A DNA stretch of 57,370 bases from an uncultured Bacilli bacterium (GCA_947588925.1 CANQAT010000001.1:1-57370); one strand, 5' to 3'. Positions 11,098 to 57,370 are shown, numbered from the stretch's first letter. Numbers and translations are program-made. The notes: generated by a model not told the origin, from the letters alone.

Positions 11098-11152
11098 GTT
11101 GTTTTCTAATTATGTTTATGATATTATATTTATTAAGAGGTGACTGCAATTG

Positions 11153-12097
11153 ATGTTAGTAAAGGAATACAAGAATCCAGATGAAATAATAAATATTTTA
11201 ACTTCACGTGGAATGTTATTTTCACAACCAATTGTTGCAAAAAAGCATTTAAATGAGATTAATTATTTCTTTCTTAAAGGGTATCAAAAATTATTGATAA
11301 AAAGAAACGATGGAGAAGAATATAAAAACAATTGTGATTTTAATGAATTAATTAATTTATATTTTTTTGATAAAGAGTTGAAAGCTTTATTACTAGAATA
11401 TTTATTAGATATTGAACAAAAAATAAAAACTGCTATGTCTAATATTATATCTGCAAAATATGGAGTTAAGGATAGAAGGTATTTAATGTCAAAAAACTTT
11501 GATACAAACAGTCCTTATTTGCAAACTGCATTATTAACTGTAAAAAATCAAAAAAAATCTTATGGAGAAAAAAATACCGCTGTCAAATATTATAAGGATA
11601 CTTATGGATATGTACCTTTTTATGTTTTATCAAAATGTTTAACATTTGGAGCAATAAAAAAATTATATAATGTAATGAAACAAGTGGATCAAGCTGCTAT
11701 TTGTAATCAAATCTTATTTATTAATATAAATAAAAAGAAAATAAGTAAAACAAAACAAATAATAGCTTTAGTGGCTGATGTAAGAAATATGTGTGCTCAT
11801 GATGAAATTGTTTTTGATTTTGTTCATAGAAGCATAGATATTGGAGAATTTCCAGAACATTCTATGTTTAACTTAAAAAGAACAAAAGAAGGCAATTTAA
11901 TTCAAGGCAGAAAAGATTTATTTGCATTATTATTGTGTATGAAATACTTAATGAATAGAACTGACTATAACAAGATGATACAAAAGTTAGATTCATTGAT
12001 AATAAAGACTTCTTCGAAATCTAAAGTTTATACCAAAGATGAATTAATTGAATATATGAATTTGCCTATAGATTATTTAAAAATAAGACAAATATAA
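11153..12097 (+). CDS. Abi-like (Abi_2, AbiD/AbiF-type) abortive-infection family protein
   Basis: Family-typical size and the conserved DVRNMCAHDE motif. GAGGTGA RBS lies 9 nt upstream of ATG 11153. Confidence 0.75.
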   Translation: MLVKEYKNPDEIINILTSRGMLFSQPIVAKKHLNEINYFFLKGYQKLLIKRNDGEEYKNNCDFNELINLYFFDKELKALLLEYLLDIEQKIKTAMSNIISAKYGVKDRRYLMSKNFDTNSPYLQTALLTVKNQKKSYGEKNTAVKYYKDTYGYVPFYVLSKCLTFGAIKKLYNVMKQVDQAAICNQILFININKKKISKTKQIIALVADVRNMCAHDEIVFDFVHRSIDIGEFPEHSMFNLKRTKEGNLIQGRKDLFALLLCMKYLMNRTDYNKMIQKLDSLIIKTSSKSKVYTKDELIEYMNLPIDYLKIRQI

Positions 12098-17721: not shown

Positions 17722-18843
17722 ATGACTGACAATATATTTGAAGGGATGGACTTTGGGCCTCTTAAAGAATATTTAGACAATGATGATATAACAGATATAT
17801 CTTATAGTAATAATGGACAAATTTGGTTAAGGACCTTATCAAAAGGTATATTTAGAATTGAAAACCCAGCTATAAACAATGCTTTTATAGAAAAACTCGC
17901 TTTTCAATGTTCAAATGTAATGGGTAAAAGCTTTAATGCTGCGCACCCTTTTCTCGATAGTGAAAGTTCTGAACTTCGTATGAATTTCGTACATGATTCA
18001 ATAGCAAGAAATGGAGTAGCATGCGTTATTCGTAAAACACCAGCTAAGATACGTCTTGAAAGAAACAAGATATTAAAAGAAAAATATATTACAGAAGATA
18101 TACTTGACTTTTTAATAACTTGTGTACACGGGCATTGCAATATAATCGTATGTGGAGAAACTGGATCAGGTAAAACTGAATTTGTTAAGTATTTGGCAGC
18201 TCATACATATGAAAATGAAAAGATAATAACTATTGAGGATACTTTGGAGTTGCACCTCGATAAAATATATCCAAATAGAGATATAGTTGCAATGAAAACA
18301 AATAATGTAGCTAGTTATACGGATGTTTTAGTAACTTGTATGAGACAAAATCCTAAATGGATTTTACTATCAGAGGTTCGTAGTGCGGAAGCAGTAATGG
18401 CCGTTAGAAACTCTATTTCATCAGGTCACAATATACTATCTACAATACATGCAGATAAAGCATCTTCTATACCTAATCGTATGTATAGCTTACTTGAGAC
18501 TAACCAAGATATAGACCAGTTTTTAAAATCAATTTATAGATATATACAATTAGGTGTATATATAAGAGGATATCAAGATAGGATTACAAAGCAGTTTGTA
18601 AGGGAAGTAGCGGAAGTAACAGAATTTTATGTAACAGATGATAATGAAGCAAAATATAATACTCTTTATAAAAAAACTCCAGATGGAAAAGTATATAGAA
18701 AGAACCCTAGTAAATATTTAATTGAATATTTAGAGTCTCAGGGTACTATGTTGCCATCAGGATTTATAAAGTCTGAATACGATAACAATTCAGAAGATGT
18801 AGAAGAAACAAAAACAAATTCAAGCGAAATAATTTTTGAATAG
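17722..18843 (+). CDS. CpaF/TadA-type (VirB11 superfamily) secretion ATPase
   Basis: Walker A GETGSGKT, Asp box ITIEDTLEL, Walker B WILLSEVR, His box GHNILSTIHA. Confidence 0.85.
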   Translation: MTDNIFEGMDFGPLKEYLDNDDITDISYSNNGQIWLRTLSKGIFRIENPAINNAFIEKLAFQCSNVMGKSFNAAHPFLDSESSELRMNFVHDSIARNGVACVIRKTPAKIRLERNKILKEKYITEDILDFLITCVHGHCNIIVCGETGSGKTEFVKYLAAHTYENEKIITIEDTLELHLDKIYPNRDIVAMKTNNVASYTDVLVTCMRQNPKWILLSEVRSAEAVMAVRNSISSGHNILSTIHADKASSIPNRMYSLLETNQDIDQFLKSIYRYIQLGVYIRGYQDRITKQFVREVAEVTEFYVTDDNEAKYNTLYKKTPDGKVYRKNPSKYLIEYLESQGTMLPSGFIKSEYDNNSEDVEETKTNSSEIIFE

Positions 18844-26134: not shown

Positions 26135-28273
26135 ATGTTTGTTTTATCTATAAATACTTGGTTTCAAACATTAATGAGACAATTTTTCTTTAACATTGAT
26201 AAAATTGTATTTAATTTTATATCAACGTTATATGAATTTTTAACAACGATAGCAAGGACATCAATACTATCTCAGTCAGATATTCAACTAATTACTAATA
26301 GAATATATCAATTATTGGCTGTTTTTATGGTGTTTAAAGTTACTTTTTCTTTGATAATGTACGTAGTTAATCCTGATGACTTTTCTGATAAATCAAAAGG
26401 TGTTGGGAAGCTTGGACTTAATATAATGATTTCTTTAGGTGTTTTGATATTAACGCCATATATATTTAGTTATGCATATCGTTTTCAAACTATTATATTA
26501 GAAGATAATTCCTTAGCAACGTTGATAATGGGAGATACAGATGAGGATAAGGACGCTTTTAACACTGCAGGAGATAAGATGGCTTATATGACGTTAGCAC
26601 CGTTTTTTACACCTAATGTATCGATAGATAATTTGTACGAATGCGTGGAATTAACGGTTAAAACAACTACAGCTACAGGTACAGTTGTGAAATTTAATCC
26701 AGCCTGTTCTGGATTAAATGATAATTATGAACCAACTGACGATAGCGATTCGCTACAAAGTCTAGTTAACGATGAAAGATTTACAATGGAAGATTTAAAG
26801 ACTTATGTTGCGGGTGTGGAAAATAGCAATTTAGGTTTAATGTTTAGACAGGACATGGCAACCGCAATGGATGAAAATAAAAAAAATTATATCATAGATT
26901 ATAAGTACTTATTTAGTACAGCTATAGGGATTATTGTAATATTAATATTAATAAGTTTTTGCTTAGATGTAGCTGTTCGTAGTATTAAACTTGCGTTTTT
27001 ACAGCTTGTAGCTCCAATACCAATTATATCTTATGTAGATCCAAAAAGTGGTAAGGATGGTTTATTTAAAAAATGGTATCAGATGTGCTTTAAAACTTAC
27101 TTAAGTTTATTCATAAGACTTTTAGCTTTGTATTTTGCGGTTTTCATAATAAGCAAAATCGATAGAATGGTTGATATTGTAGACGGTTCTTATGTAACTA
27201 ATTTGTTTGTAAAAATATTTATTATAATTGGAGCTTTAATGTTTGCTAAACAATTACCAAAGATACTTGAAGGACTTGGAATTAAGCTAGATGGAGGCTT
27301 CCAATTAAATCCACTTAAGAAAATTGAAAATGAGGCTTTAGGTGGAAAACAGATAGCTAAGGCTGCGAGAGTTCCACTAAAATATGCAGGAAGAGGAGCT
27401 AAGGGATTAGTTGCCGGTGGATTGGCGGGTGCTGCTGCATTTGGAACTAATTTAATAGCAAGAAGGGGTAATGTATTTAGCGCAACTGCGGGTGCATTAA
27501 GTGCAACTGCTAGAGGTTTAAAAGGTGCCGTAAAAGGTGAAAAATTCGGTAAAAACTTTTCAAATTCGTATGGCGGCGCTATGAAGGCGAGAACTAATAG
27601 AGCCGATAGAAAGGATTTAGGAATAAATGCTTTTGATGTGGCAAGTGAAAATATTAAGAAGCGTTTATATATTCCTAACGAAGCGCAAAAAAATAAATTA
27701 ACTTTAGATCATTTAAATGAATATACATCTGCAGGTAAAACTGCAAAGACTAGGGCTGAAGGGGAAGTTGACAAGAAAGCAAGTATGATTGAAATTGATG
27801 GACAAAATTTAGGTGCTTTGAGAGATTCATATGAAATATTAAAAAATACACAAATAAAAAGAAGAACTGGAGAATCGGATGCTGCTTATCAAGCTAGAGT
27901 TGAACAACATGCACGTCTGGCTGCGGAAGCAAATGCAAAATATTTTAAAGCAAGAAAAAAAGCTGTAAATGCTTATGTTAATAGTGCTGATAATTTATCA
28001 CGATCTTCAATTTCTATTGGTGGTTCAACTATAACTGGATTTGATTCAGCATTCTCAGGGGATGCAGCAAGAGATGAAATTGTTGCATCAAACGTTGAAA
28101 AAATGAAACAGTTAAATTCAGATTACAGTATGCAGCAGCCAGTTAATTCTGAAGATATTGGTGCTACAATTCAAAATGCTGAAAATGAAACAGCTAGAAT
28201 TCAAGGAAGTAGAGAATACAGACAAGCAGAACTTATTTCTCAACAAGCACAAAAAGAAAAAAGTTCAAAATAA
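26135..28273 (+). CDS. VirB6/TrbL-like polytopic channel protein with a long basic Gly/Ala-rich and coiled-coil C-terminal tail
   Basis: Multiple TM helices. LDVAVRSIKLAFLQLVAPIPIISYV and WYQMCFKTYLSLFIRLLALYF resemble the TrbL/VirB6 core. The ~320-aa hydrophilic tail starts near residue 395. Confidence 0.6.
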   Translation: MFVLSINTWFQTLMRQFFFNIDKIVFNFISTLYEFLTTIARTSILSQSDIQLITNRIYQLLAVFMVFKVTFSLIMYVVNPDDFSDKSKGVGKLGLNIMISLGVLILTPYIFSYAYRFQTIILEDNSLATLIMGDTDEDKDAFNTAGDKMAYMTLAPFFTPNVSIDNLYECVELTVKTTTATGTVVKFNPACSGLNDNYEPTDDSDSLQSLVNDERFTMEDLKTYVAGVENSNLGLMFRQDMATAMDENKKNYIIDYKYLFSTAIGIIVILILISFCLDVAVRSIKLAFLQLVAPIPIISYVDPKSGKDGLFKKWYQMCFKTYLSLFIRLLALYFAVFIISKIDRMVDIVDGSYVTNLFVKIFIIIGALMFAKQLPKILEGLGIKLDGGFQLNPLKKIENEALGGKQIAKAARVPLKYAGRGAKGLVAGGLAGAAAFGTNLIARRGNVFSATAGALSATARGLKGAVKGEKFGKNFSNSYGGAMKARTNRADRKDLGINAFDVASENIKKRLYIPNEAQKNKLTLDHLNEYTSAGKTAKTRAEGEVDKKASMIEIDGQNLGALRDSYEILKNTQIKRRTGESDAAYQARVEQHARLAAEANAKYFKARKKAVNAYVNSADNLSRSSISIGGSTITGFDSAFSGDAARDEIVASNVEKMKQLNSDYSMQQPVNSEDIGATIQNAENETARIQGSREYRQAELISQQAQKEKSSK

Positions 28274-28611: not shown

Positions 28612-29128
28612 ATATACTGATGTTCCTGTTAAGGACATCGCAAACGGTGTTATTGTTCTTGATAACAATCAAAAGGTTACTGGCGTAAAAATTATGCCAA
28701 GAAATATTTTCATACTAGATCAAGCTATGCAAGATGCAATAATTACTAATTTAAAAAATGTTTATAATGCTATTGATTATGAATTTTGGATTGTGGTTGC
28801 AGATAGACCTGTAGATATAAATGTTTACTTGTCTAATCTACAACTACAATATAATCAGTTAACTGATACTAAGAAAAGAAAATTAATTATGGAAGATATT
28901 AACAAGGCTAATATGTTTATGAAAAATAATGTTGTTGACACAGAGTATTTCTTGTTATTTAAAGAAAAGGATAATGATTTAATACAAAAAAGAATTCGTA
29001 ATTTGATTAACAACCTTGCTAGTGCAGGACTTACTGCATTTCAAACTAATAATGACGATTTAAGAATGATACTTGATAATTTCTTAAATGGTGGACAAAC
29101 TACTACTTTTGGGACGGTGTTAGCATGA
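28589..29128 (+). CDS. VirB4-type ATPase, N-terminal fragment encoded as a separate ORF
   Basis: IANGVIVLDNNQKVTGVKIMPRNIFILDQ resembles the N-terminal region of Firmicute VirB4/TcpF/PrgJ proteins. Ends in an ATGA overlap with the next ORF. Confidence 0.6.
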   Translation: MAKQTKSRYTDVPVKDIANGVIVLDNNQKVTGVKIMPRNIFILDQAMQDAIITNLKNVYNAIDYEFWIVVADRPVDINVYLSNLQLQYNQLTDTKKRKLIMEDINKANMFMKNNVVDTEYFLLFKEKDNDLIQKRIRNLINNLASAGLTAFQTNNDDLRMILDNFLNGGQTTTFGTVLA

Positions 29129-30912
29129 TGGATATTAGAAGTCAAATTGCTCCAAAAGGGCTAGAATTTAAATCAAACGAATTCATTATTAGTGATAAAT
29201 ATGCATGTATATTAACTATAATATCTTATCCTAAATTTATTTATCCAGGATACTTAAGTAGTTTAACAAGCATGTCAGGAATAAAGGTTGTAATTAAACA
29301 TATTCCACTTCCATTTAGTAGTATTAGTAAAATGTTAAATAAAGAACTTGCCGATTTAAGACAAAGATATCAGGATGAAAAAGATAATACAATAAAAGAG
29401 AGAATAAGACAAGATTATGAATCTTTAGAGTTGTTTATTAGCGATCTTGCCTCAAGTCAATCTAAGATATACGATTTTCAAATGCATGTTATGATAACTG
29501 CTGATACACAAGAAGAATTAGACGCTAAAAAAGTACAGGTTAAAAATTATTTAGAGGCAATGGAAATGAGAGCTATTCCTTTACGTTTCGAACAGGACAA
29601 AGTTCTTAAATCTATTTTGCCAATATATGGTAAACAGGATATCGAAGATAGAATTGGAACACCAATACCAGCACCTACGATAGCTGCAATGTATCCATTT
29701 ATATTTGATAGTATAAAAGATCCTGGATTATCCACTTTGCTTGGAATTGATTTTTCTGGAGGAGTTATCCTATTTAACCAATTCTTATATCAAATAAAGA
29801 AGGAGCACAACCGTAATAATGCTAATATGATTATTTTAGGAACATCCGGAAGTGGTAAATCTACCGCTGCTAAATTACTTTTAAGAAGTCATATTAGAAA
29901 CAACAATCAAATAGTAGTAATTGATCCAGAGGGCGAACTTGAAGACATGACAAGGACATTTGATGGAGATTTCATAAGCCTTGGTAAGGGTGGATCATAC
30001 GGTATGATAAATCCTCTTGAAGTAATTATGGACGCAGATGAAGACGAGATGAAACAAGGATTAGGATATACTGTATTTACTAGAACACTTCAAACTATTA
30101 AAGCATTCTTAAAATATTATGATCCAAGTATCACTGAGGATGTAGTTAATATGTTTAGTGAAGTAGTACAAGAAACATATAAAAGATTTGGTATAGATTT
30201 TGAATCAGATTTTACTAAGTATAAGTCTGAAGATTATCCAACATTTAAAGATGTATACGCAACTATACGTGGAAGAATTCTTTCTATGCCAGAAAAGACT
30301 CAAGAAAAAGATGTTTTAGAAAAACTTGAAATAAAAATAAGACCAATTGTTAACGAGTTAAAATATTATTTTGATGGGCATACAACGATAAAGCCTAGAA
30401 GTAATTTTATAGTATTTAATATAAAAGAACTTATGAATGCGGACGCAAACATAAGAAATGCATTATTCTTCAATATACTTAAGTATGCATGGGGACTTAC
30501 ACTTGATAGTTCAGTAAATACTGTAATGATGGTAGATGAAGCGCATGTTCTTCTAAGTGGAGGAAATACACTTGGCGCAGATTTCTTAGCTCAAATCCAA
30601 AGAAGAGCTCGTAAATACAATACAGGTACAATAATAATCACACAACAACCAACAGATTTTAGTGATCCTAGTGTTATTACACAAGGTAAGGCAATATTTG
30701 ATAATGCTTCTTATTACTTAGTAATGGGATTAAAGAAACAAGCTGTTGATGATTTAGCAAAATTAATAGATTTAAATGACAATGAAAAAGAAAGTATAAA
30801 ACAATATTCTCAAGGAGAAGCCTTATTCGTATGTGGATCTAGGCGTATGAGAATAAATGTAATAGTATCAGATGAAGAGCTAGATTCATTTGGTAGTGGT
30901 GGAGGATTATAG
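29125..30912 (+). CDS. VirB4-type ATPase, C-terminal (motor) part
   Basis: Walker A GTSGSGKST and Walker B VMMVDEAH. 595 aa. Confidence 0.85.
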   Translation: MMDIRSQIAPKGLEFKSNEFIISDKYACILTIISYPKFIYPGYLSSLTSMSGIKVVIKHIPLPFSSISKMLNKELADLRQRYQDEKDNTIKERIRQDYESLELFISDLASSQSKIYDFQMHVMITADTQEELDAKKVQVKNYLEAMEMRAIPLRFEQDKVLKSILPIYGKQDIEDRIGTPIPAPTIAAMYPFIFDSIKDPGLSTLLGIDFSGGVILFNQFLYQIKKEHNRNNANMIILGTSGSGKSTAAKLLLRSHIRNNNQIVVIDPEGELEDMTRTFDGDFISLGKGGSYGMINPLEVIMDADEDEMKQGLGYTVFTRTLQTIKAFLKYYDPSITEDVVNMFSEVVQETYKRFGIDFESDFTKYKSEDYPTFKDVYATIRGRILSMPEKTQEKDVLEKLEIKIRPIVNELKYYFDGHTTIKPRSNFIVFNIKELMNADANIRNALFFNILKYAWGLTLDSSVNTVMMVDEAHVLLSGGNTLGADFLAQIQRRARKYNTGTIIITQQPTDFSDPSVITQGKAIFDNASYYLVMGLKKQAVDDLAKLIDLNDNEKESIKQYSQGEALFVCGSRRMRINVIVSDEELDSFGSGGGL

Positions 30913-33602: not shown

Positions 33603-35033
33603 ATGTTAAAAAAGATTTTATTACTTATAATGGTGTTTTCAACATTATTTTGCCTTAATTTTAATATTGTTTTTGCATATGAATTTATTAATCCTGATAA
33701 TGAGGGATTAGTATATGATAAAATAAATGAAATATATGACGCAAAAGATCAATATGAAGATTTAGCAGGTGATTATGAGGAAGTTACTGTAATAAATGCA
33801 AATAACTTTGCATATTGGTGGCCTGTTGGAAGTGAAGAAACTTTTGAAAAAAATGGGAAATTGTATGCAACTGGAGATCCTATGTCAACTACAGTAACAT
33901 CTACATTTGGTGGAAGAGATGACCCACATGGATCAGGTGCTTCAGATACACATTATGGACTTGATATCGGTAATGGAGGACATAGTGCAGGAGAAGTAAA
34001 TGTTATCGCTACTAAATCAGGAGAGGTAGTATATCCAATAAACCCTTCACAAACATCTTATCAAGATACCTCTAATAGATATGATGGTGGTGGGTACGGT
34101 AATTATGTTAAAATTAAACATAGTGATGGTACTTATACACTCTATGGACATTTAGCTCAAAACAGTATAAGAGTTTTTGCAGGTGAAGTAGTAGAGCAAG
34201 GACAAGTTATAGGTAAAATGGGAACTAGTGGAAACTCGACTGGTGTTCATTTACATTTTGAAATAAGAGTGGGTGCGGATTCTAGCAGGAATGCTGTTGA
34301 TCCAACAAAATATGTAGATAGTGAAAATCCAAGACCTTTAATTTCAGATGGTAGTAATTTTTCAATAAATACAACTACTTTATCTAAAGACGAGTTCGTT
34401 TCAAAAATGAATGATTATTGTGATAGATCAGGTAAAAAAGGTTTCTGTAGTACATTTAAAGAAAATGCAGAAGAGATATATGATGTATCAGTTGCTAATA
34501 ACATTAATCCAGAATTAGTAGTTGTAACAGCAGGAGCAGAGCAAAATTGGTCTTTGAGTTCTGCTTGTAGTTATACCAATAATTATTGGGGAATTGGAAT
34601 AAATAATGGAGAAGGGTGTAACTCAGGAGGAAAGTATTCTTCTCTTAAAGAAGGTATAATAGCTTATTCTAATTTATTATCCGAATATGGAGTAGGTGGT
34701 AAATACGAGGGAGCTATTACTAGCAGATATAATGAAAGAGAAAGTGCTGGATGTGGAATTGAAGGACATGGACTTCCGGGTTCATTAACTGGTATGCAGT
34801 CTATGTATTCTTGGTTAGGAAATTATAGATATAATCCGGGTAACTGGGGACTAGGCGGTTGTTCATATTTGAATGTCATGTATGGAGATTCTTATTGTTC
34901 TACTAAAGTAACTTGTGATGATTACGATAACTGTCCTCAAGAATCTAAGACTACAGTTTGTGAGCAAAATGATTATACAGCTTGGCAAGTACAAACTAAG
35001 TTACAAATTAGATATGATATTTTTGGACTATAG
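33603..35033 (+). CDS. Secreted bifunctional peptidoglycan hydrolase candidate: M23 (LytM) metallopeptidase plus a lysozyme/glucosaminidase-like C-terminal domain
   Basis: M23 motifs HYGLDIG and GVHLHFEI. C-terminal AGAEQNWS ... NNYWGIGI resembles a GH73-type catalytic region. Confidence 0.7.
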   Translation: MLKKILLLIMVFSTLFCLNFNIVFAYEFINPDNEGLVYDKINEIYDAKDQYEDLAGDYEEVTVINANNFAYWWPVGSEETFEKNGKLYATGDPMSTTVTSTFGGRDDPHGSGASDTHYGLDIGNGGHSAGEVNVIATKSGEVVYPINPSQTSYQDTSNRYDGGGYGNYVKIKHSDGTYTLYGHLAQNSIRVFAGEVVEQGQVIGKMGTSGNSTGVHLHFEIRVGADSSRNAVDPTKYVDSENPRPLISDGSNFSINTTTLSKDEFVSKMNDYCDRSGKKGFCSTFKENAEEIYDVSVANNINPELVVVTAGAEQNWSLSSACSYTNNYWGIGINNGEGCNSGGKYSSLKEGIIAYSNLLSEYGVGGKYEGAITSRYNERESAGCGIEGHGLPGSLTGMQSMYSWLGNYRYNPGNWGLGGCSYLNVMYGDSYCSTKVTCDDYDNCPQESKTTVCEQNDYTAWQVQTKLQIRYDIFGL

Positions 35034-36059: not shown

Positions 36060-38087
36060 ATGAGATTAAGATTTAGAGCAGACGCAAAAGATGTATTAAT
36101 ATTTTGTATATTTGCTGTAGCATGGTTATTTGTAGTTTCATTAGCTGTTGCAAATGTTTCTCTTTTCTTAGATGGAGAATCATTCACACTTAACTTTTTA
36201 ATTGGTTTTAGCTCACACAATATAGCTACAACTCTTATACTTTTCTTTGCTGGAATAATTGCAGCCTTTGCAGGGGTTAAATCTGTATTTATTGAAAAAG
36301 AAGACGATACGACAGGAATAGGACTTGCAATAGGAAAGAAAAAAGAGAAGAATTATTCAAGATGGGCAAGAGATAATGAAATAAAAAAAGGTTTAGATGT
36401 AAAAGCTGTCGATCCTTTAGCTCCTAAAGCTGACGCAGCAGGAATACCACTTATAATGACGCCTAAAAAAGTTTGGGTAGATAATGGTGGGTACCACAAT
36501 ATAGTAATAGGTTCTACTGGTGCCGGAAAAACTCAGACAACAGTTTTGCCTATGGTTAATTTACTTGCTAAACACGATGAATCTATGATTATAACAGACC
36601 CTAAAGGCGAAATATATGAAAACACTGCCAATTATTTAAAGAGTTTAGGATATAATATAGTACTTTTAAACTTCCGTGATCCACAACAAGGAAATGCTTG
36701 GAATCCAATGTATTTGCCATATTCATTATATCAAAGTGACAATATAGATAAGTCAATAGAATTACTTGAAGACTTAGCAGCCAATATTCTTCATGATCCA
36801 ACTGCTAAGGGTCAAGATCCATTCTGGGAAAATACATCTGCAGATTATTTTGCAGGACTTGCATGTGCATTATTCGAAGATGCAAAACCAGAAGAGATCA
36901 ATCTTAATAGTATAAGTTTGATGACTACGGTAGGAGAGGAAAAGCTTGCTAATACAACCTATATAAAAGATTATTTCAGTTATAAAGATCCCGGAAGTAC
37001 TGCATATACTAAAGCTTCTTCCACTTTGATGGCTCCATCAGAAACTAAAGGAAGTATATTATCAGTATTTAAACAAAAAATTCAATTATTCGCTTCACGT
37101 GCTAATCTATCTGAAATGTTATCAAATAATGACTTTGATATGAGAGATATAGGTAGAAAAAAAACAGCTGTATTTATAGTTATTCAAGATGAAAAGACTA
37201 CATATCATTCACTTGTAACAATATTCTTGAAACAGTGCTACGAAACACTTATATCAGTAGCTCAAGAATCTGGAGGAAAACTTCCTCATAGAACAAACTT
37301 CATCCTTGATGAGTTTGCAAACATGCCTCCTTTAAAAGATGTTACTACAATGGTAACTGCAGCTCGTTCAAGAAACATAAGATTTACATTTATCATTCAA
37401 AACTTTGCTCAATTATACGAAGTTTATGGAAAAGAAAATGGTGAAACAATAAAAGGTAACTGTGGTAACATAGTATACTTGATAAGTACAGAGTTATCCG
37501 CACTAGAAGAGATAAGTAAGATGTGTGGAGAGGTAAAATCTAAAGAAAAGGAAAAAACTTCATCCACACCTTTAGTAACTGTAAGTGATTTACAGAGATT
37601 ATCACAGTGGGAAACTATTATATTAAGACTTAGAACAATGCCTTTTAAAACTAAATTAACTCCAAATTTTAAAATGAGTTGGGGTCATAGTTTTCCTAAG
37701 GCTGAATATCCAAAAAGAGAGAAAATACCTGTACAGACTTTTGATTTAAAAAGTTATGTAAATAAAAGAAGAGAAGAAAAAATTAATAGTATGTTAAATG
37801 GGGATTCTGATGTTAAGGGTATGCCATCACCATTTGAAAGAGGACCATTTAATCCATTTATTGGGCCTAATAAGCCAAATGAAGATAAATTTGATGTCGA
37901 TGATCTAGTTAAGAGAATAGACGCTAAAATTGCTGAACTTGAAGAAGAAGAAAGACAAGAAAAGGCTAAATTGGAAAACCAAGATACTATTGATATAAAG
38001 ACAAATGAAAAGCCTGATGTTCAAGAATTTTCTAATGATGAAATTACAGATGATCAATTCTTTGATGATTTCTTCTCAGATGAATAA
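36060..38087 (+). CDS. VirD4/TraG-family type IV coupling protein
   Basis: Two N-terminal TM helices, Walker A GSTGAGKT, Walker B FILDEFANM, acidic C-terminal tail. Confidence 0.85.
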   Translation: MRLRFRADAKDVLIFCIFAVAWLFVVSLAVANVSLFLDGESFTLNFLIGFSSHNIATTLILFFAGIIAAFAGVKSVFIEKEDDTTGIGLAIGKKKEKNYSRWARDNEIKKGLDVKAVDPLAPKADAAGIPLIMTPKKVWVDNGGYHNIVIGSTGAGKTQTTVLPMVNLLAKHDESMIITDPKGEIYENTANYLKSLGYNIVLLNFRDPQQGNAWNPMYLPYSLYQSDNIDKSIELLEDLAANILHDPTAKGQDPFWENTSADYFAGLACALFEDAKPEEINLNSISLMTTVGEEKLANTTYIKDYFSYKDPGSTAYTKASSTLMAPSETKGSILSVFKQKIQLFASRANLSEMLSNNDFDMRDIGRKKTAVFIVIQDEKTTYHSLVTIFLKQCYETLISVAQESGGKLPHRTNFILDEFANMPPLKDVTTMVTAARSRNIRFTFIIQNFAQLYEVYGKENGETIKGNCGNIVYLISTELSALEEISKMCGEVKSKEKEKTSSTPLVTVSDLQRLSQWETIILRLRTMPFKTKLTPNFKMSWGHSFPKAEYPKREKIPVQTFDLKSYVNKRREEKINSMLNGDSDVKGMPSPFERGPFNPFIGPNKPNEDKFDVDDLVKRIDAKIAELEEEERQEKAKLENQDTIDIKTNEKPDVQEFSNDEITDDQFFDDFFSDE

Positions 38088-40170: not shown

Positions 40171-41244
40171 ATGAAAAAGAAACTATATTTAATATTAACC
40201 TTTTTATTCATATTTATTGGAATACAAACTGTAAATGCATTAGATGAATGTTATACATGTCAAATGAGTGGTACACCATGTGAATCATGTGGAAGTATGT
40301 GTAAAGAATTTGATGATGGGATATGTAGAATAAAAAATGATGACCAAGAGTTAAATGATCCTGCCCATTATATGTGTGAGTACATGGGTGATTTTACTAA
40401 TTTATTAACTGATGAAGTAAATAAAGTTATGATAAGACTAGAATACAATAAAGAAACAGGTGATGTAGAGTTAACACCTGAAACTGGCATTCTTTTAGGC
40501 CTATATTCAACAATCCCGCCGTATTATTCATTTCTCGCTGATTCTCTAAAAATAACTGCAGCAGAAAATTTGGGGAAATGCCCTTCTAAAATTTATGTTG
40601 CGTATTCTCCATTTATTACAATATCTGGAAATGGAAATAGAATTGATGGTCTTTCTGATTTTATAAATTATATTGGTGATAAAGATATTTTTAATACTGG
40701 ATGTCAAAACTTGACTGTATATCAAGATAGATTTGATAATGCAATTAGTAAATACAAAGAATGTAAATTAAGTGGAAAAAATAGTGCTACATGTTTATCT
40801 TCTGCGATATCTGAGGTAAATTCTAGTGAGGATTTGTTAAAGACATATTGTGATTCAATACTCCAATCATATACTTATGATGGCGCGTTTGAAGAAGACT
40901 GCATAGTTGGTTGCCTAGGTGCGAGTAGGCGCATAAATGAAGCAAAAAAAGATAGTGGATTATCAAGTGGCGCAGGAGATTGTGGATTCTCATCAAGAGT
41001 ATTAGTTTGGATAAATAACATAATGAGATGGATAAAGTATATATTACCAGTTATAGTAATAATACTTGGAATAGCAGACTTTATAAAAGCAATGTCTGCA
41101 GATAAAGAAGATGAGATGAAAAAAGCTCAAGGAAGATTTGTAAAAAGGTTAATTTCAGCTGCTATTGTATTTGTAGTACCGCTATTAATAGAATTTATAT
41201 TAAATATGATGGGATTTAGATACGACTCATGTAGTCTATTCTAA
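40171..41244 (+). CDS. Paralog 4 (orphan): Cys-rich ectodomain plus VirB2/TrbC-like two-helix module
   Basis: The mature N terminus DECYTCQMSGTPCESCGSMCKEFDDGICR is homologous to paralog 1. C-terminal LPVIVIILGIADFIKAMSADKEDEMKKAQGRFVKRLISAAIVFV. Confidence 0.6.
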   Translation: MKKKLYLILTFLFIFIGIQTVNALDECYTCQMSGTPCESCGSMCKEFDDGICRIKNDDQELNDPAHYMCEYMGDFTNLLTDEVNKVMIRLEYNKETGDVELTPETGILLGLYSTIPPYYSFLADSLKITAAENLGKCPSKIYVAYSPFITISGNGNRIDGLSDFINYIGDKDIFNTGCQNLTVYQDRFDNAISKYKECKLSGKNSATCLSSAISEVNSSEDLLKTYCDSILQSYTYDGAFEEDCIVGCLGASRRINEAKKDSGLSSGAGDCGFSSRVLVWINNIMRWIKYILPVIVIILGIADFIKAMSADKEDEMKKAQGRFVKRLISAAIVFVVPLLIEFILNMMGFRYDSCSLF

Positions 41245-48140: not shown

Positions 48141-48524
48141 TTATAAGTTTTGACCAGTAGATGGATAAAATTGTGGGACTGTATTTATTTCCTCATCAAA
48201 TTTAATATAATCCACATATATCATTAGTAAAAGGTACCAATTTCCTGTAGTTGGGTCACTTAATATAATATGATCTCTACCTGATTGTTCTATAATACCA
48301 GTAAATACCTTATCCTTCCATTCACCTGAATCTGCAAATGATTGATAAACAGATACTCTTTTTCCTCTATTTACTCTTAATATGTTTTCTATATATGATT
48401 GTTCATTAGGTACATATTCTTGTGAAGTAGTAGGTGCCATACTTTGATTAGGTGTTGGAATATTCCCAGAATAAATAGGACTTCCCGGGAATTTTGAATT
48501 GTTATTTAAATAATTATTGTTCAT
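48141..48524 (-). CDS. gerQ: Spore coat protein GerQ family
   Basis: SYIENILRVNRGKRVSVY ... GIIEQSGRDHIILSDPTTGNWYLLLMIYVDYIKFDEEI. Confidence 0.7.
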   Translation of the reverse strand: MNNNYLNNNSKFPGSPIYSGNIPTPNQSMAPTTSQEYVPNEQSYIENILRVNRGKRVSVYQSFADSGEWKDKVFTGIIEQSGRDHIILSDPTTGNWYLLLMIYVDYIKFDEEINTVPQFYPSTGQNL

Positions 48525-48593: not shown

Positions 48594-49157
48594 ATGAAAG
48601 TTAGTATAGGTGTTTCAAATAGACATGTTCACTTAACAAAAGAACATTTGAGTATTTTGTTTGGTGAGGATTATAAGTTAGAAAAGAAAAATGATTTAAA
48701 CCAACCTGGACAGTTTTCATCAACTGCAGTTGTAACAATAAAAACAGATAAATCTGAAATAGATAATGTTAGAGTTTTAGGACCAATTAGAAATTATACT
48801 CAGGTTGAAATTAGTAAAACTGATGCATATAAATTAGGACTTAATCCACCAGTTAGAAACTCTGGAGATTTAGAGGGAAGTAGTCCGATTAAAATAGTAG
48901 GTCCAAAAGGATGTGTAGATCTAAAGTCCGGTTGTATTATAGCGACTCGCCATATACATATTTTGCCTAGTCAATTAAAAATGTATAACTTAGAAGGCAA
49001 GGAAACTGTTAATGTAAAATTAAATGGAGAAAAAGGCGGTATAATTACTAATGTATATTTGAAAGTGAGTGATGAAGCTTTCTTTGAGCTACATATAGAT
49101 ACAGATGACGCAAATGCACATTTGGTAAAAAATGGGGATATAGGTGAGATTATATGA
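48594..49157 (+). CDS. pduL: Phosphate propanoyl/acetyltransferase PduL
   Basis: Duplicated PduL signature: VSNRHVHL, and later ATRHIHI. Confidence 0.8.
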   Translation: MKVSIGVSNRHVHLTKEHLSILFGEDYKLEKKNDLNQPGQFSSTAVVTIKTDKSEIDNVRVLGPIRNYTQVEISKTDAYKLGLNPPVRNSGDLEGSSPIKIVGPKGCVDLKSGCIIATRHIHILPSQLKMYNLEGKETVNVKLNGEKGGIITNVYLKVSDEAFFELHIDTDDANAHLVKNGDIGEII

Positions 49158-50167
49158 AAAAGATAAAATATTTAATATTTGTATTAGCTCTTTTCTTATT
49201 TACAGCAAGTAGCGTACATGCTAGTACATGTACATACACGGATGGGCAATTAACTGCAACAGTTACAATTGATTCAAAATCTAACGCTTCTGCCAAAATT
49301 AAAGGATATCTAAATTCAACTGATGAAACAGATATTAGCATAACAGATGATGTTGACAACTGGGGTAAAATCTTTAATCCTAAATTAGGTCCAAGTCCTA
49401 AAATAAAATTTAATGCCAAATCATATTACGAACTTCATAAAGAATGCCCTGAATATGCTATATTTGCAGATATTCCATGGGGTGAGGGAGGAACATGGGA
49501 ATTTAAATTTGCTCTATTTTCTGAACAATTTAAAGCTGAATTTGAAAAATATGGGAAAAAAACACAAGGATATGCTATAATGGAAATTGTTGGAGGCACT
49601 GATCCACAACCATCATTTGAACCACATTCGTGTATAGACTTTCCAATAAATGTTTGTACTAACGGTTCCTGTGAAAAATCATGTGAACATAATTCAAAAT
49701 TTTCTTGTATTTGGAATGAAACAGACCAAGGAAGTTACTGTAATACTGATAATTTGCTTTATATTAGTTGCGCAGACGCATTTGATATGCCACATCAAAT
49801 TCCTCAAATATTAAGCTTTATATTTAACCTGCTTAAGATAGGAACTCCGATCATTCTTATAATAGTAAGTATTATATCTTTAGTAAAAGCACTAGCTGCT
49901 TCAAAAGATGATGAAATTAAAAAGGCGCAACACTCTCTTATTAGAAAACTTATTGCTGGAGCTTTAGTATTCTTTATAGCTTCAATTGTACAACTCGTTA
50001 TTTCTATAGTAGCTGATTCTTCTGAAACAGAAAATGTTTCAACTTGTATAGACTGTTTGTTAAATAACGATTGTGAAAGCAGTATGTACTATAAGACAAA
50101 TGTAGGCGGAACAACAGTTTGTACATATCTTGAAAGTGGAGAAGAAAAAACTTGTGATGATAATTAA
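49154..50167 (+). CDS. Paralog 5 (orphan): Cys-rich ectodomain plus VirB2/TrbC-like two-helix module
   Basis: Signal peptide, then SCADAFDMPHQIP ... TPIILIIVSIISLVKALAASKDDEIKKAQHSLIRKLIAGALVFF and CIDCLL. ATGA overlap with the pduL stop. Confidence 0.6.
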   Translation: MKKIKYLIFVLALFLFTASSVHASTCTYTDGQLTATVTIDSKSNASAKIKGYLNSTDETDISITDDVDNWGKIFNPKLGPSPKIKFNAKSYYELHKECPEYAIFADIPWGEGGTWEFKFALFSEQFKAEFEKYGKKTQGYAIMEIVGGTDPQPSFEPHSCIDFPINVCTNGSCEKSCEHNSKFSCIWNETDQGSYCNTDNLLYISCADAFDMPHQIPQILSFIFNLLKIGTPIILIIVSIISLVKALAASKDDEIKKAQHSLIRKLIAGALVFFIASIVQLVISIVADSSETENVSTCIDCLLNNDCESSMYYKTNVGGTTVCTYLESGEEKTCDDN

Positions 50168-51085
50168 AGGGGTTGTTCGGAAATTAAGTGATTGATTTAT
50201 AATCAGTCTCTTTTTTTATTATGTATAATTATTAAATCAAAAAAGTCGAAACTATAAAGTCTCGACAAAATGTGATACAATATTCTTGTCTAGAGAAATG
50301 AGGTATCACATAAACTATTTTACTACAAATAGATTTTTATTTCTAGTCCCCTCAGACGATTGTATTGAGGAATTTGAAAAAATGGATAAGTTTGTTGAAC
50401 TTTTGAATAAATCTGGAATTGGAAAAATAATTGAACAAGAACATAAAAAGTATAAAAAAGCAAATTTTGGAAAACCCAACTATAATCTTTATAATATGAT
50501 GGCAACTGTAATTTATTGTTATACAAAATTTAGAGCTACTCTAAGAGAAATGGAAACTTTATGCAAATTTGATTTGCGAGTAATTTATTTAATGCAACAA
50601 ACAATTCCAGACCATGTTGTCATATGTGATTTTATTAATAAATATATTATTCCTCATCAATATGAAATATTTACGATGATTAATAAGGCAATAATAAATG
50701 AACTTAAGTTAGATATGTCCATTCAATATAATGATGGTACAAAAATAGAAGCTAATGCTAATAAATATAAATTCGTATGGAAACCAACAACTTATCATAA
50801 AAAATTGGATGTTAAAATTAAAGATTTATTAGTTAAAATGAATATTAAGTTTAAAAGTAAAAACTTGATAAAATTATTTCAATTTAATGAATTTATAAAA
50901 GAATATACTACTATAAAACATGATATATGTATAAATAATATACCAAGTGGAAGAGGGAAAAAATTAAAAGATAATTATTGGAATACGCCTTCTAATTTAA
51001 AAGAAGAAAAATTTCCTTTCCCAAAACAAAAAAAGAAAAAAGAGACTGACAAGAAATCAATCACTTAATTTCCGAGCAGTCCCTT
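50168..51085 (+). mobile_element. Internally deleted IS1182-like insertion sequence (~0.92 kb) with ~45-bp imperfect terminal inverted repeats
   Basis: Left end AAGGGGTTGTTCGGAAATTAAGTGATTGATTT..TCAGTCTC. The right end (51041..51085) is its imperfect reverse complement. Confidence 0.75.
50298..51068 (+). pseudogene. Truncated IS1182/IS5-like transposase: N-terminal DUF772-type region only, no complete DDE domain
   Basis: FGKPNYNLYNMM..LREMETLCKFDLRVIYLM..IPDHVVICDF and DGTKIEANANKYKFVW. The ORF runs into the right inverted repeat after only ~256 aa. Confidence 0.6.
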
Positions 51086-51311
51086 TTTTCATTAAAGGTA
51101 ATACAAAATGTGTCAAATTGTAATCATTTTTGCAAGTGTGAAAATAAATTAGCACCATTTTTTTCGATAAAATGCCTTGTAATACAAGGGTTTTCAAAAA
51201 AATTGGTGCAACTCCCATATCCTGTTGAAAATAAAAACTTGTTAAATTTAGTGTTTTTATATATTTATATTTAAAATATAATTAAAAATTATAAATATTT
51301 TAACAGACTAA

Positions 51312-52409
51312 TCACTCATCATTTTCATCATCTGTTTTTCTAAAATCTAATTTATAATTATTATCATCAGATTTTTCAAAAACTACATCTTCAATACCAA
51401 TTTCTGCAAGTTTATCATATGTCAATATTTCATTTTCTTCTAATCTTAATACTTCTCTTAATAACCATGCACCTAACTCACTATTTGGGTTAGACATTAA
51501 TGCTTTCCCATTGTCTTGACATAATTTCATAGACATTTCCTTCCCATTAGGAAGCAAAACATTAAACGAAGTATCCCTACTTGGAAAGAAATCTTTATAT
51601 TTTTCTCTAATTTTCTTATTGAATGGTATATAAACTTCATCTATATTTCTGCTTCTTCCACCAGCATTCCATTGGTTTAAACCACTTTTTGGATAGACTA
51701 ATTTAACTCCATTTTTTTCAGAATATAATGGAATAACAGCTACTTCATCTTCAGTTATTGTTACTAATGAGTCTATTCCTTTTCTTAATACTTCAAATGG
51801 ATTAGTAGCTACTTTGACAAAAACACTATCATAATATTCATCTGTATTAAAACGTTTAAGTAAAACACTCTTTGATATATTAAAATTATACTCATGAAGT
51901 CCATCAGTAAAAATTAAAGAAGTATCTGAAGTATTAATTATTTTTATATTTGAAATATCTATTTTATCCATAGGCTCTTCGTAAAAATGAAAACCTTTTT
52001 TATTTCTAATAACACAGTGATATATCATTTTAGATAACCCATATGTAGCCATAGTAGATTCGATACGATCATTTCTTAATTCAGCTATTTTTTTGATTTT
52101 TTCTAATCCTTCTAAATCAGAATATGATTTTCTAGCTTTATTAAATTCCGCAATTTTCTGCCATGTTTTTTTATTGCCTTCAGTAAATGTCTTTATTCCA
52201 ATTCCAATATTATTTAATTTTGCATCAGCTGTAACACAAGATCTAGCAAGATTTGTAGCACCAAAACATTCACAATATAAATTTTCAGGAACTCTATAAT
52301 CGAGCCATGGATCATCATTTTCACTAAATAATAATGACAATGAGCCAATTAATTTTAAGTTATTTTTGTAATCTTCGAATTTGCTTTTATCATAATTAAT
52401 TATCTGCAT
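51312..52409 (-). CDS. Type II restriction endonuclease candidate (specificity unknown)
   Basis: 365-aa ORF overlapping the 3' end of the C5-methyltransferase gene by 14 nt. Possible PD-(D/E)xK-like segment TADAKLNNIGIGIKT. The call rests mainly on context. Confidence 0.55.
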   Translation of the reverse strand: MQIINYDKSKFEDYKNNLKLIGSLSLLFSENDDPWLDYRVPENLYCECFGATNLARSCVTADAKLNNIGIGIKTFTEGNKKTWQKIAEFNKARKSYSDLEGLEKIKKIAELRNDRIESTMATYGLSKMIYHCVIRNKKGFHFYEEPMDKIDISNIKIINTSDTSLIFTDGLHEYNFNISKSVLLKRFNTDEYYDSVFVKVATNPFEVLRKGIDSLVTITEDEVAVIPLYSEKNGVKLVYPKSGLNQWNAGGRSRNIDEVYIPFNKKIREKYKDFFPSRDTSFNVLLPNGKEMSMKLCQDNGKALMSNPNSELGAWLLREVLRLEENEILTYDKLAEIGIEDVVFEKSDDNNYKLDFRKTDDENDE

Positions 52410-53385
52410 TTTCTGTCTCCTTTATCGCATCTAATATTTTTTCAGCAACCCTTTTTATTACATTAACAGACACCGCATTCCCAGCTTGTTTATAAATTCT
52501 AGAATCAGCCAATTCTTTTGGAACAATGAAATTTTCAGGGAATCCTTGAAGCATTAAACATTCAATAGGTAATAATTTTCTAATTTTATTATAATTTGTA
52601 TATATTAAAGGTACATTATGCCCTCCCATACCCATATTTGCGGTTAATGTTGGACATAACCCATTTTTATTTTCTCTAACATAAACTCTTCTATATTGAT
52701 AAACAGTATTATGTTCTTTTATATTATCACTTAATAATTTATAACATTTTTTATCTTGTTCGTATAAGTATTTTTTTGGAACTTCTTTTTCCCAATCAAC
52801 GATTTTATCTATAGTATTTTTTAATTGAATCTTTCTAGGCCATTTAAAGTTATTATAATCATTTTCATTAAGAAAACCTATTATAAAAATTCTCTCTCTA
52901 TTTTGAGGTAAATCTCCATATTCACAAGTGTTTAAAACTTTTGATTCAACAAAATATCCGTAATGCTCCAATGTTTCTTTAATTACTTTAAATGTATTTC
53001 CATTATCATGCGTTTTCAAGTTTTTTACATTTTCTAAAAATAATATTCTTGGTTTATTGTTATTTTCAGCCATTTCTTTTACTAATCTCATTATTTGGAA
53101 AAACATATTGCCACGATCATCTTCAAAGCCTTTCCTATATCCCGCAATAGAAAATGGTTGACAAGGAAAACCAGCTGATAAAACATCAACTTTAGGTATA
53201 TCTTTTCCTTTTATGTTACATATATCATCAACTACAAGCTTAATGTCTTTATGATTTAAATTAAATGTAACAGCACAATATTTGTCTATTTCATTAGCCC
53301 ATATTGGTTTAAATCCAGCATTTTTAAATCCTAAATCTATTCCACCAATTCCAGCGAATAAACTTGCCATTTTTAATTTTTTCAT
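52396..53385 (-). CDS. DNA (cytosine-5)-methyltransferase
   Basis: Motif I FAGIGG, IV GFPCQPFS, VI ENVKNL, VIII QNRERIFIIG, X GNAVSVNV. Confidence 0.9.
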   Translation of the reverse strand: MKKLKMASLFAGIGGIDLGFKNAGFKPIWANEIDKYCAVTFNLNHKDIKLVVDDICNIKGKDIPKVDVLSAGFPCQPFSIAGYRKGFEDDRGNMFFQIMRLVKEMAENNNKPRILFLENVKNLKTHDNGNTFKVIKETLEHYGYFVESKVLNTCEYGDLPQNRERIFIIGFLNENDYNNFKWPRKIQLKNTIDKIVDWEKEVPKKYLYEQDKKCYKLLSDNIKEHNTVYQYRRVYVRENKNGLCPTLTANMGMGGHNVPLIYTNYNKIRKLLPIECLMLQGFPENFIVPKELADSRIYKQAGNAVSVNVIKRVAEKILDAIKETENADN

Positions 53386-56142: not shown

Positions 56143-57150
56143 ATGATAAGAGTAGCAATTAATGGATTTGGAAGAATAGGAAGACTAATATTTAGAATAA
56201 TGGAGGAAGACCCTAGTTTTGAGGTAGTAGCTATAAATGATTTAACGGACGCAGAGCAACTAGCATACCTACTTAAATATGATACAAGTCATGGTAATTA
56301 TAGAGTTGATGATATAAGCTTTGATGAAAATAATATTATTGTAGGTAGTAGAAAGATAAGAGTGTATAGTGAGACTGACCCATCTAATTTGCCATGGGGT
56401 GAACTTAAGATAGATGAGGTATTTGAATGTACTGGACACTTTACAGATAAAGATAAAGCATATGCTCATATAAATGCAGGAGCTAAAAAAGTTATAATAA
56501 GCGCACCTGCTAAAGGAGATTTAAAGACTATTGTTTATAATGTAAATGAAAATACTCTAGATGGTAGTGAAAAGGTCATAAGCGCAGCTTCATGTACTAC
56601 AAACTGTCTTGCTCCAGTACTTAATGTAATAGAGAAAAATATTGGTATAGTAAAAGGATTTATGACTACGGTCCATGCTTATACAAATGATCAAGCAACT
56701 CTTGATATAGCTCATAAAAAGGGAATAAATGCAAGACGTGGCAGGGCATGTGCGGCAAACATAGTACCATCATCAACAGGAGCTGCTTCTGCTATAGGTC
56801 TTGTTATTCCATCACTAAAAGGTAAGATGGATGGAGGAGCCCTAAGAGTACCTGTTACAACAGGGTCTGTTATAGATTTAACACTAGAACTTAAAAGAAA
56901 TACAACAGTTGATGAAATCAATAAATTATTTATAGATAATTCAAATGAAACTATTAAATTAACTTTTGATCCAATAGTATCAAGTGATATAAAAGGCTCT
57001 CATTTAGGTAGTTTAGTAGATGGACAGTTAACTAAAGTTGTTGAAGTAGATGGAAAACAATTAGTTAAAATAATTGCTTGGTATGATAATGAGATGGGTT
57101 ATTCAGCTCAAATGGTTAGAACTGCTAAATACTTTGGTAATTTAATGTAA
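56143..57150 (+). CDS. gap: Glyceraldehyde-3-phosphate dehydrogenase, type I
   Basis: NGFGRIGR, active site SCTTNCLAP, WYDNEMGYS. Confidence 0.95.
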   Translation: MIRVAINGFGRIGRLIFRIMEEDPSFEVVAINDLTDAEQLAYLLKYDTSHGNYRVDDISFDENNIIVGSRKIRVYSETDPSNLPWGELKIDEVFECTGHFTDKDKAYAHINAGAKKVIISAPAKGDLKTIVYNVNENTLDGSEKVISAASCTTNCLAPVLNVIEKNIGIVKGFMTTVHAYTNDQATLDIAHKKGINARRGRACAANIVPSSTGAASAIGLVIPSLKGKMDGGALRVPVTTGSVIDLTLELKRNTTVDEINKLFIDNSNETIKLTFDPIVSSDIKGSHLGSLVDGQLTKVVEVDGKQLVKIIAWYDNEMGYSAQMVRTAKYFGNLM

Positions 57151-57170
57151 AGTAAATGTATATATACTAG

Positions 57171-57230
57171 AGAAATAGATAATAATAAACATGAGGAAAT
57201 ATAAGGGTTTATTTATTATCTATTCTTTTA
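57171..57230 (+). terminator. Long hairpin terminator after gap
   Basis: AGAAATAGATAATAATAAAC pairs with GTTTATTTATTATCTATTCT (small bulges), followed by TTTT. Confidence 0.6.
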
Positions 57231-57288
57231 AAAAAACTGTTGCAAAGAAGCACATCACAAATTTTTCAAAAAAATTTAGCTCACCCCC

Positions 57289-57317
57289 TTGACAGGGGGG
57301 GGGGGGGATGATAGAAT
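57289..57317 (+). promoter_or_regulatory. Near-consensus promoter whose 17-nt spacer is mostly a G13 homopolymer
   Basis: TTGACA (57289..57294), G13 plus ATGA (57295..57311), TAGAAT (57312..57317). AAGGAGG RBS at 57337..57343. Confidence 0.6.
57295..57307. repeat. Poly-G tract (13 nt)
   Basis: 13 consecutive G in an otherwise very AT-rich window. Preceded by CCCCC-TTGACA, so a C5/G5 stem is also possible. Confidence 0.9.
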
Positions 57318-57348
57318 AGAAGTGTAAGTATAAAATAAGGAGGTTACT

Positions 57349-57370
57349 ATGAAAAATAAAGGTTTTACAC
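57349..57370 (+). CDS. 5' end of a type IV pilin/pseudopilin-like gene (partial; runs out of the window)
   Basis: The first seven codons read MKNKGFT, and the next codon starts with C. This matches the class III leader K-G/F-T-L-x-E. Confidence 0.5.

Follow-up and report, generated by a model that had tools for sequence, protein, structure and literature searches.

A 13-nt poly-G tract in the spacer of a predicted promoter: a candidate contingency switch for a prepilin-type gene in uncultured gut Bacilli

How does a run of 13 consecutive G residues come to lie between the two hexamers of what looks like a promoter, in DNA with little G or C to spare? The run (G13, plus strand, 57295-57307) occurs near the end of a contig from an uncultured Bacilli bacterium, in the window analysed here, i.e. 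the whole stretch of 57,370 nt (27.7% GC, G fraction 0.156). The initial annotation took it for a slippage-prone promoter spacer ahead of a type IV prepilin-like gene. The reading that we prefer, and judge moderately probable, is that G13 acts as a promoter-spacer contingency switch of the kind known from porA and tp0126, on a strain-variable gene with a prepilin leader.

The nearest GAPDH genes among GTDB species representatives come from low-GC gut bacteria known only as MAGs; the closest relatives are labelled 'uncultured Bacilli', 'uncultured Tenericutes', 'Mycoplasma sp. CAG:611' and 'Coprobacillus sp. CAG:605', and the top match, at 95% identity, is from a rabbit-gut MAG (L002). We place the host in a low-GC lineage of uncultured gut Bacilli that is represented solely by MAGs. 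The window is chromosomal DNA, with chromosomal genes that include those for ScpA/B, BacA, RNase R, SmpB, RmuC and ClpP, and 587 GAPDH relatives were retrieved from genome contigs. Upstream of G13 lies the conserved gene for glyceraldehyde-3-phosphate dehydrogenase, gap (plus strand, 56143-57150, a 335-aa ORF); the Pfam domains Gp_dh_N and Gp_dh_C were matched on the identical gap copy in the contig L001.

Between gap and the end of the window, all features considered are on the plus strand. RNA folding of 57148-57300 predicts an intrinsic terminator for gap, an AT-rich hairpin with a T run (57169-57232), whose long stem (57169-57228) is followed by UUUU (z = -2.8). This predicted terminator sets the downstream gene apart as its own transcription unit. 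Beyond it come an A/T-rich stretch at about -60 to -41 which, judged by its composition, may be an UP element (57264-57283), a C5 run (57284-57288) abutting the -35 hexamer TTGACA (57289-57294, 6/6 matches to consensus), G13 itself, which takes up 13 of the 17 spacer positions, the ATGA (57308-57311) that completes the spacer to exactly 17 nt, and the -10 hexamer TAGAAT (57312-57317, 5/6). The last of these forms part of a TG-extended -10 element, TGATAGAAT (57309-57317, with the TG at 57309-57310).

A consensus scan predicts a promoter here with 11/12 matches, a 17-nt spacer and TG before the second hexamer, and this is the best promoter-like site within the final 1.4 kb of the window. The initial description of a perfect -35 and a good -10 separated by 17 nt agrees with the sequence and with a script check. 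By its elements it would be a strong promoter of the sigma-A type. We infer that the promoter is used, with transcription probably starting near 57324. An AAGGAGG ribosome binding site (RBS; 57337-57343) lies 5 nt ahead of an ATG start codon (57349-57351), from which an ORF beginning MKNKGFT is read; RBS and codons are as first described, with the start moved to 57349 from about 57350. Promoter-spacer switches have a homopolymer of about 8 nt or more, able to slip, between the -35 and -10 hexamers; G13 is a tract of this sort and lies between the two hexamers of the predicted promoter. A second promoter-like site, ATGATA-17-TAAAAT (57308-57336, 9/12), was considered and rejected, as its transcription start would fall inside the RBS. 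There is no Rfam match in the window, which rejects a known RNA family, and no paralogous copies of the 5' UTR were found in the window or the fetched loci.

A run of this length is far outside what the base composition would give. Across all 57,370 nt no other run of G or C exceeds 5, and composition predicts about 2e-6 runs like G13, which bears out the earlier remark that it is very unexpected in DNA so rich in A and T. Promoter-like sites of at least 11/12 number 14 in the window, counting both strands, and a random 13-mer would fall wholly within the spacer of one of the 14 with p ~6e-4. Given both the rarity of the run and its placement in a spacer, neither the tract nor its position is an accident of composition.

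Similar arrangements were sought more widely. Neither the viral contigs nor the JGI metagenomes scanned contain the 34-mer 3' of the tract, and the viral contigs likewise lack TTGACA-G11-N(1-8)-TANAAT. Scanning for C5-TTGACA-G9 or longer returned one irrelevant viral contig and four unrelated JGI contigs of 64-68% GC, about the number predicted by composition. In these four contigs (L084-L087), C5-6-TTGACA-G10-11 is intergenic and all have at least 10 G: L084 3719-3739, and on the minus strand L085 near 244-264, L086 near 1939-1960 and L087 near 4209-4230. Around the L084 motif there is another inverted repeat, GGACA...TGTCC, and the L085 motif has a TAGATT box at 18 nt.

Is the tract real, and is it 13 nt long? 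An independent contig, L001 (ERZ27059666, ENA), matches 6,091 nt of the window at 100% identity and also has 13 G, with its end exactly at the 13th. Exact look-ups with GAPDH, a PRK-domain protein and ClpP all led to the same three ENA contigs only (L001, L082 and L083), none of which crosses G13: L001 ends there, L083 ends at 57207 and L082 diverges. The tract is 13 G in both assemblies that reach it, i.e. the window and L001, a length that may err by one, as homopolymers in short-read assemblies can. Several circumstances would suit a sequencing or assembly artefact, be it a poly-G tail from two-colour chemistry, a chimeric join or a miscounted homopolymer: L001 ends within the G run (+0) and taken alone would fit a two-colour poly-G tail, the window ends 63 nt past its tract, the related contig L052 ends 75 nt past a G10 tract of its own, and coverage is low (3.5x for L001, about 3.5-4.3x in the other contigs of this strain). 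Dark-cycle poly-G, however, is added at the 3' ends of reads, without genomic continuation, and could not yield G13 followed by 63 nt of coherent same-strand sequence with a -10, an RBS, an ATG and a leader. The window contig moreover requires reads of at least k-mer length spanning both flanks; at least 13 G occur with identical flanks in two assemblies; the hexamers would form no promoter were the tract absent or far shorter; and analogous tracts are present at homologous positions in several independent assemblies produced by different assemblers. We consider an artefact of any of these kinds quite improbable, and a two-colour poly-G, against which the initial annotation had warned, very unlikely.

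The end of L001 fits a branch in the de Bruijn graph, if the reads carry G13 and longer variants, and fits as well a loss of usable reads over a long G run at low coverage. Under either explanation the break is caused by the tract itself, and it is no evidence for biological heterogeneity. That contigs end close to poly-G in the window, L052 and L001 may just as well be due to the difficulty of sequencing across G runs.

Alignment and mismatch lists place G13 in a strain-variable segment (plus strand, 57138-57370), about 160 nt from its start. Upstream of 57138, no more than 5 SNPs separate L082 from the window; from that position, within the last gap codons, the two diverge completely. The window, L001 and L083 have the segment in common. 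GAPDH ends in ...GNLM* in the window type and in ...GNI*, with a different terminator, in the type found in L082 and L002; rpsU comes after gap in L002, and the end of L082 resembles that of L002. As L082 diverges while L001 and L083 share the window's version, the block of terminator, G13 promoter and gene is an accessory insert directly after gap. The recombination breakpoint in the last gap codons is sharp (window 57138-57370 against L082 7938-8013 and L002 10995-11400).

A second poly-G promoter was found in L052 (12546-12667; 70% GAPDH identity), with the arrangement TTGACA-TAAGCT-G10-TG-TAAAAT. Its spacer measures 18 nt, which G9 would make 17 nt, and its score is 11/12. It directly follows a terminator and lies upstream of MKENKKKIILAI..., the downstream protein having an N-terminal signal- or anchor-like sequence. 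The L052 segment is missing from relatives of 93% identity, which have the S10 operon there instead.

The position of both promoters near insert edges bears on whether G13 is a real but fixed tract and not a switch: a spacer of constant length, a DNA structure, a protein-binding site or a scar at the edge of the insert. The C5 run and G13 might then form a hairpin or cruciform over the -35 hexamer, or the tract some other G-rich structure, and the 17-nt spacing would merely be the working state. Such a tract is compatible with the same length of 13 in both assemblies, with the location of G13 about 160 nt within a strain-variable segment and of the L052 G10 promoter likewise at an inserted-segment edge, and with the presence of C5-TTGACA-G10/11 in unrelated high-GC contigs. 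The four high-GC matches, though, are about as many as composition predicts, and related poly-G tracts in the lineage vary in length (below). A run of 13 G in 28% GC DNA should also decay fast unless selected or recent and, to our knowledge, G tracts of about 13 nt are intrinsically unstable in every system studied. Nor does the structural version gain from folding. Pairing of the C5 run with the G run across the -35, as first suggested, gives a DNA fold of -7.1 kcal/mol against -5.3 +/- 1.4 for shuffled sequences (z = -1.3), no stabler than chance, and we rejected the hairpin as a significant structure. We hold a fixed tract to be unlikely, and continue with the switch as the preferred reading.

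What would be switched? The ORF is cut by the window end, leaving seven codons and one base (plus strand, 57349-57370, the base being C at 57370). Its product starts M-K-N-K-G|F-T, i.e. a short, basic leader with a terminal Gly and Phe at +1, and is predicted from these residues to have a prepilin-type leader (class III signal peptide) cleaved between G and F. MKNKGFTLIE-like leaders are too common to serve for ranking a true gene. In at least eight related MAGs, a gene after or near gap starts with K/R-G/A-F-T-L-[IV]-E and a hydrophobic helix; it follows gap in L008, L010, L013, L016, L017, L045 and L063, and is elsewhere in the gap locus in L005. Four of the seven gap-adjacent relatives scanned pass the curated cut-off of TIGR02532, the model for the N-terminal cleavage/methylation domain of prepilin-type proteins, while none of the seven reaches that of the equivalog models (ComGC, PilA, GspG). 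These proteins range from ~120 aa to 440-500 aa, some with adhesin-like C-terminal domains, and their genes are often solitary or encode large adhesin-like domains.

Beyond residue 7, then, a prepilin-type surface protein is what the leader and the synteny with gap would predict, and this part of the initial annotation is supported. Its expectation of a pilus or competence operon is not one that we assert, given the absence of equivalog matches. In the 57-kb window, no recognisable genes for a prepilin peptidase or for pilus assembly (PilB/ComGA-type ATPase, platform protein) were found; the one ATPase of the T2SSE family in the window, a VirB11-like protein (17722-18843), belongs to a conjugative type IV secretion system (T4SS) block. 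Where relatives have a prepilin-type gene behind gap, its promoter is in every case without a G tract, so G13 is not conserved at this position.

For the G13 promoter, the switch would work as follows. With 13 G, the hexamers would be optimally spaced at 17 nt, giving a high or ON state. Slipped-strand mispairing at replication would add or remove G; at 16 or 18 nt the -35 would be turned about 34 degrees against the -10, and hexamers so misaligned would be expected to lower transcription, or with larger changes to abolish it. Expression of a surface or pilus-like protein would thus be switched, or its volume adjusted, stochastically and in a heritable, reversible way. A spacer of 16 or 18 nt might still leave partial activity, owing to the TG-extended -10, and the response would then be graded and not all-or-none.

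The closest models for such a mechanism are two poly-G promoters. For porA of Neisseria meningitidis, a passage in PMC7864442 describes poly-G between the -35 and -10, the length of which sets spacing and transcription, with 17 nt optimal; van der Ende 1995 is the work cited for porA in a passage of PMC5084427. The likeness lies in a poly-G within the spacer of a sigma-70-type promoter at a surface-protein gene; porA differs in belonging to a Gram-negative pathogen, in its shorter tract (9-11 G), in encoding a porin and in having effects that are experimental, those of the window's G13 being predicted. In Treponema pallidum, also according to PMC7864442, tp0126 has poly-G between -35 and -10 and is transcribed best at 17 nt; the genome has many poly-G tracts, linked to an equal number of genes, and the majority of these tracts are of variable length. 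The related MAGs described below show a similar family-wide use of poly-G, whereas T. pallidum is a spirochete and its tracts have 7-12 G; at tprE/G/J and tprL the poly-G lies just upstream of the transcription start, and not in the spacer as in the window.

Bordetella pertussis fim2 and fim3 have a poly-C of ~13-15 nt in a fimbrial promoter, and its length gates transcription. The initial annotation drew its analogy to these, which holds in that a homopolymer gates a promoter, yet porA and tp0126, with poly-G between -35 and -10, are closer. In the fim promoters, the tract separates the binding region of an activator (BvgA) from the -10. This dependence on an activator puts fim mechanistically one step further away, and with a perfect -35 and an extended -10 no activator need be invoked for the window. 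In Mycoplasma hyorhinis, poly-A in the -35/-10 spacer switches the vlp surface-protein genes combinatorially, and the Mollicutes are placed within the Bacilli in GTDB. The vlp genes are the phylogenetically nearest precedent, from a low-GC relative, and differ in having poly-A and lipoprotein targets. The Vlp system is among those cited in a passage of PMC11868660.

Does poly-G recur in this lineage? In the ~0.75 Mb of low-GC loci fetched via GAPDH alone, runs of G or C reach 9 nt or more at four places, where ~0.03 are expected. All four have the G on the sense strand. L001 ends in its tract; the other three, which have downstream sequence, each lie at the 5' end of a gene whose product is secreted or membrane-anchored. 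The run-length spectrum of the fetched loci, which is biased by targeted retrieval, peaks at 9-10 and shows no decay from 7.

A rabbit-gut MAG (GCA_947627435.1, L017) has a conserved leader of ~100 nt ahead of at least six genes, five encoding proteins of ~490 aa with a PF07963 prepilin N-terminus and the sixth one of 418 aa. The leaders (L017 15884-16030; L095 2890-2981; L096 9819-9914; L097 9880-9976, 12503-12600 and 17384-17479) have the order sigma-70-type promoter, conserved hairpin region, then G9-11, TAA, CCCTC and T7-10, the stretch from the G tract on being scored as an intrinsic terminator. From paralogue to paralogue within this one MAG, the tracts are G9, G10, G10, G10, G10 and G11. 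The leader matches no Rfam family; it is a candidate for a cis-regulatory element or attenuator of a new type, in which the poly-G arm is variable. Homologues of the L017 16030-17523 product (P0025-P0144) have a C-terminal domain common to thousands of proteins without the prepilin leader, some of which have phage tail-collar (PF12571) or Mtd_N (PF18454) domains. The shared domain is a hint that the ~490-aa proteins join a receptor-binding, possibly DGR-diversified, module to a prepilin signal.

These leaders raise the question of whether G13, too, works in RNA, as an attenuator element on a transcript from further upstream, since in the leaders G9-11 pairs with a C/U run and is scored as a terminator stem at six genes, five of them prepilin-type. 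The window's tract has no C/U run after it, having ATGATAGAAT instead; its C5 is upstream, so that a hairpin would be without a U tail. Searched by nhmmer with a profile of the L017-type leader, the window gives no match, nor has it one in Rfam, and the gap terminator stands between gap and the tract, with no other good promoter upstream. The lack of a C/U run and of a profile match disfavour an attenuator here, and we give the idea very little credence. A spacer switch remains our preferred reading of G13.

Elsewhere, poly-G is found inside ORFs. In L041 (1865-3062), G9 lies in the 5' end of an ORF, and G8 or G11 would restore a protein of 398 aa that has a membrane helix at its N-terminus and a Laminin_G_3 domain, and of which full-length homologues were found. 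L098-L101 carry tandem paralogues (L098 2501-3960; L099/L100/L101 840-3890) that all begin MKNNYKLKVNS-(G)n, with tracts of G8-G11, of which lengths 8 and 11 keep the reading frame and lengths 9 and 10 break it; the proteins have an N-terminal membrane helix and Laminin_G_3 or ALK_LTK_GRD domains. L099 and L100 align over 3,600 nt with 0 mismatches, but the tract of the third gene is G9 in the one and G8 in the other. As far as the assembled sequences can be trusted, this is a direct between-sample polymorphism as expected of contingency loci, an assembly error being possible. Taken as a whole, the set resembles a classic family of contingency genes that are switched at translation, here in MAGs of gut Bacilli. 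Campylobacter jejuni, with its low-GC genome (~30%), has many G8-G13 tracts at surface-structure genes; most of these are intragenic, which makes them like the tandem genes of L098-L101 and unlike the promoter tract of the window.

Tentatively, and with some doubt, we suggest that this lineage runs a poly-G 'phasome' in the manner of Campylobacter or Treponema on prepilin-type and other surface-protein genes, with at least three architectures. These may be (i) the promoter spacer, as in the G13 of the window and the G10 of L052, (ii) the 5' arm of a leader terminator, with G9-11 at six or more genes of one MAG, and (iii) 5' coding tracts in tandem paralogues, with G8-G11 in on and off states. 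The window tract may then be one switch of a combinatorial surface variation in commensals of the animal and human gut. Full-text literature searches found no paper describing such a poly-G system in this lineage.

The mechanism itself is textbook, so that the gain lies in scope and not in principle; what is new is the gut Bacilli host, the prepilin-type target and the hint of three poly-G architectures. If confirmed, phase variation by simple sequence repeats would extend beyond Neisseria, Haemophilus, Campylobacter, Treponema and Mycoplasma to genome-reduced gut Bacilli, and prepilin-type surface proteins would form a variable interface with host, phage or DNA uptake. There is also a practical side: poly-G tracts break short-read assemblies and yield apparent frameshifts and truncated genes in MAGs (L041, L099-L101), and for this reason the surface-protein repertoires of these MAGs are systematically under-annotated.

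Several features in other parts of the window are also of note. A block on one strand (14102-38087) encodes the conjugative T4SS and is probably an integrated conjugative element; besides the VirB11-like ATPase it includes a TrbL/VirB6-like protein (26135-28273), a VirB4-like protein (29125-30912), an M23/glucosaminidase hydrolase (33603-35033) and the coupling protein VirD4 (36060-38087). Two more loci, 40171-41244 and the more weakly matching 49154-50167, encode proteins with a T4SS_pilin domain. In the region 50286-53385, an IS-like transposase ORF with a TTG start, for which L082 gave a weak DUF772 match, adjoins a restriction-modification pair, i.e. an NgoFVII-like endonuclease (51312-52409) and a C5 DNA methyltransferase (52396-53385); the contigs L001 and L083 start near this transposase. 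An Abi_2 abortive-infection-like gene lies at 11150-12097. A GerQ spore-coat-like gene (48141-48524), taken together with Spo0A-like regulators found in the relatives L017, L052 and L088, suggests that the lineage may sporulate.
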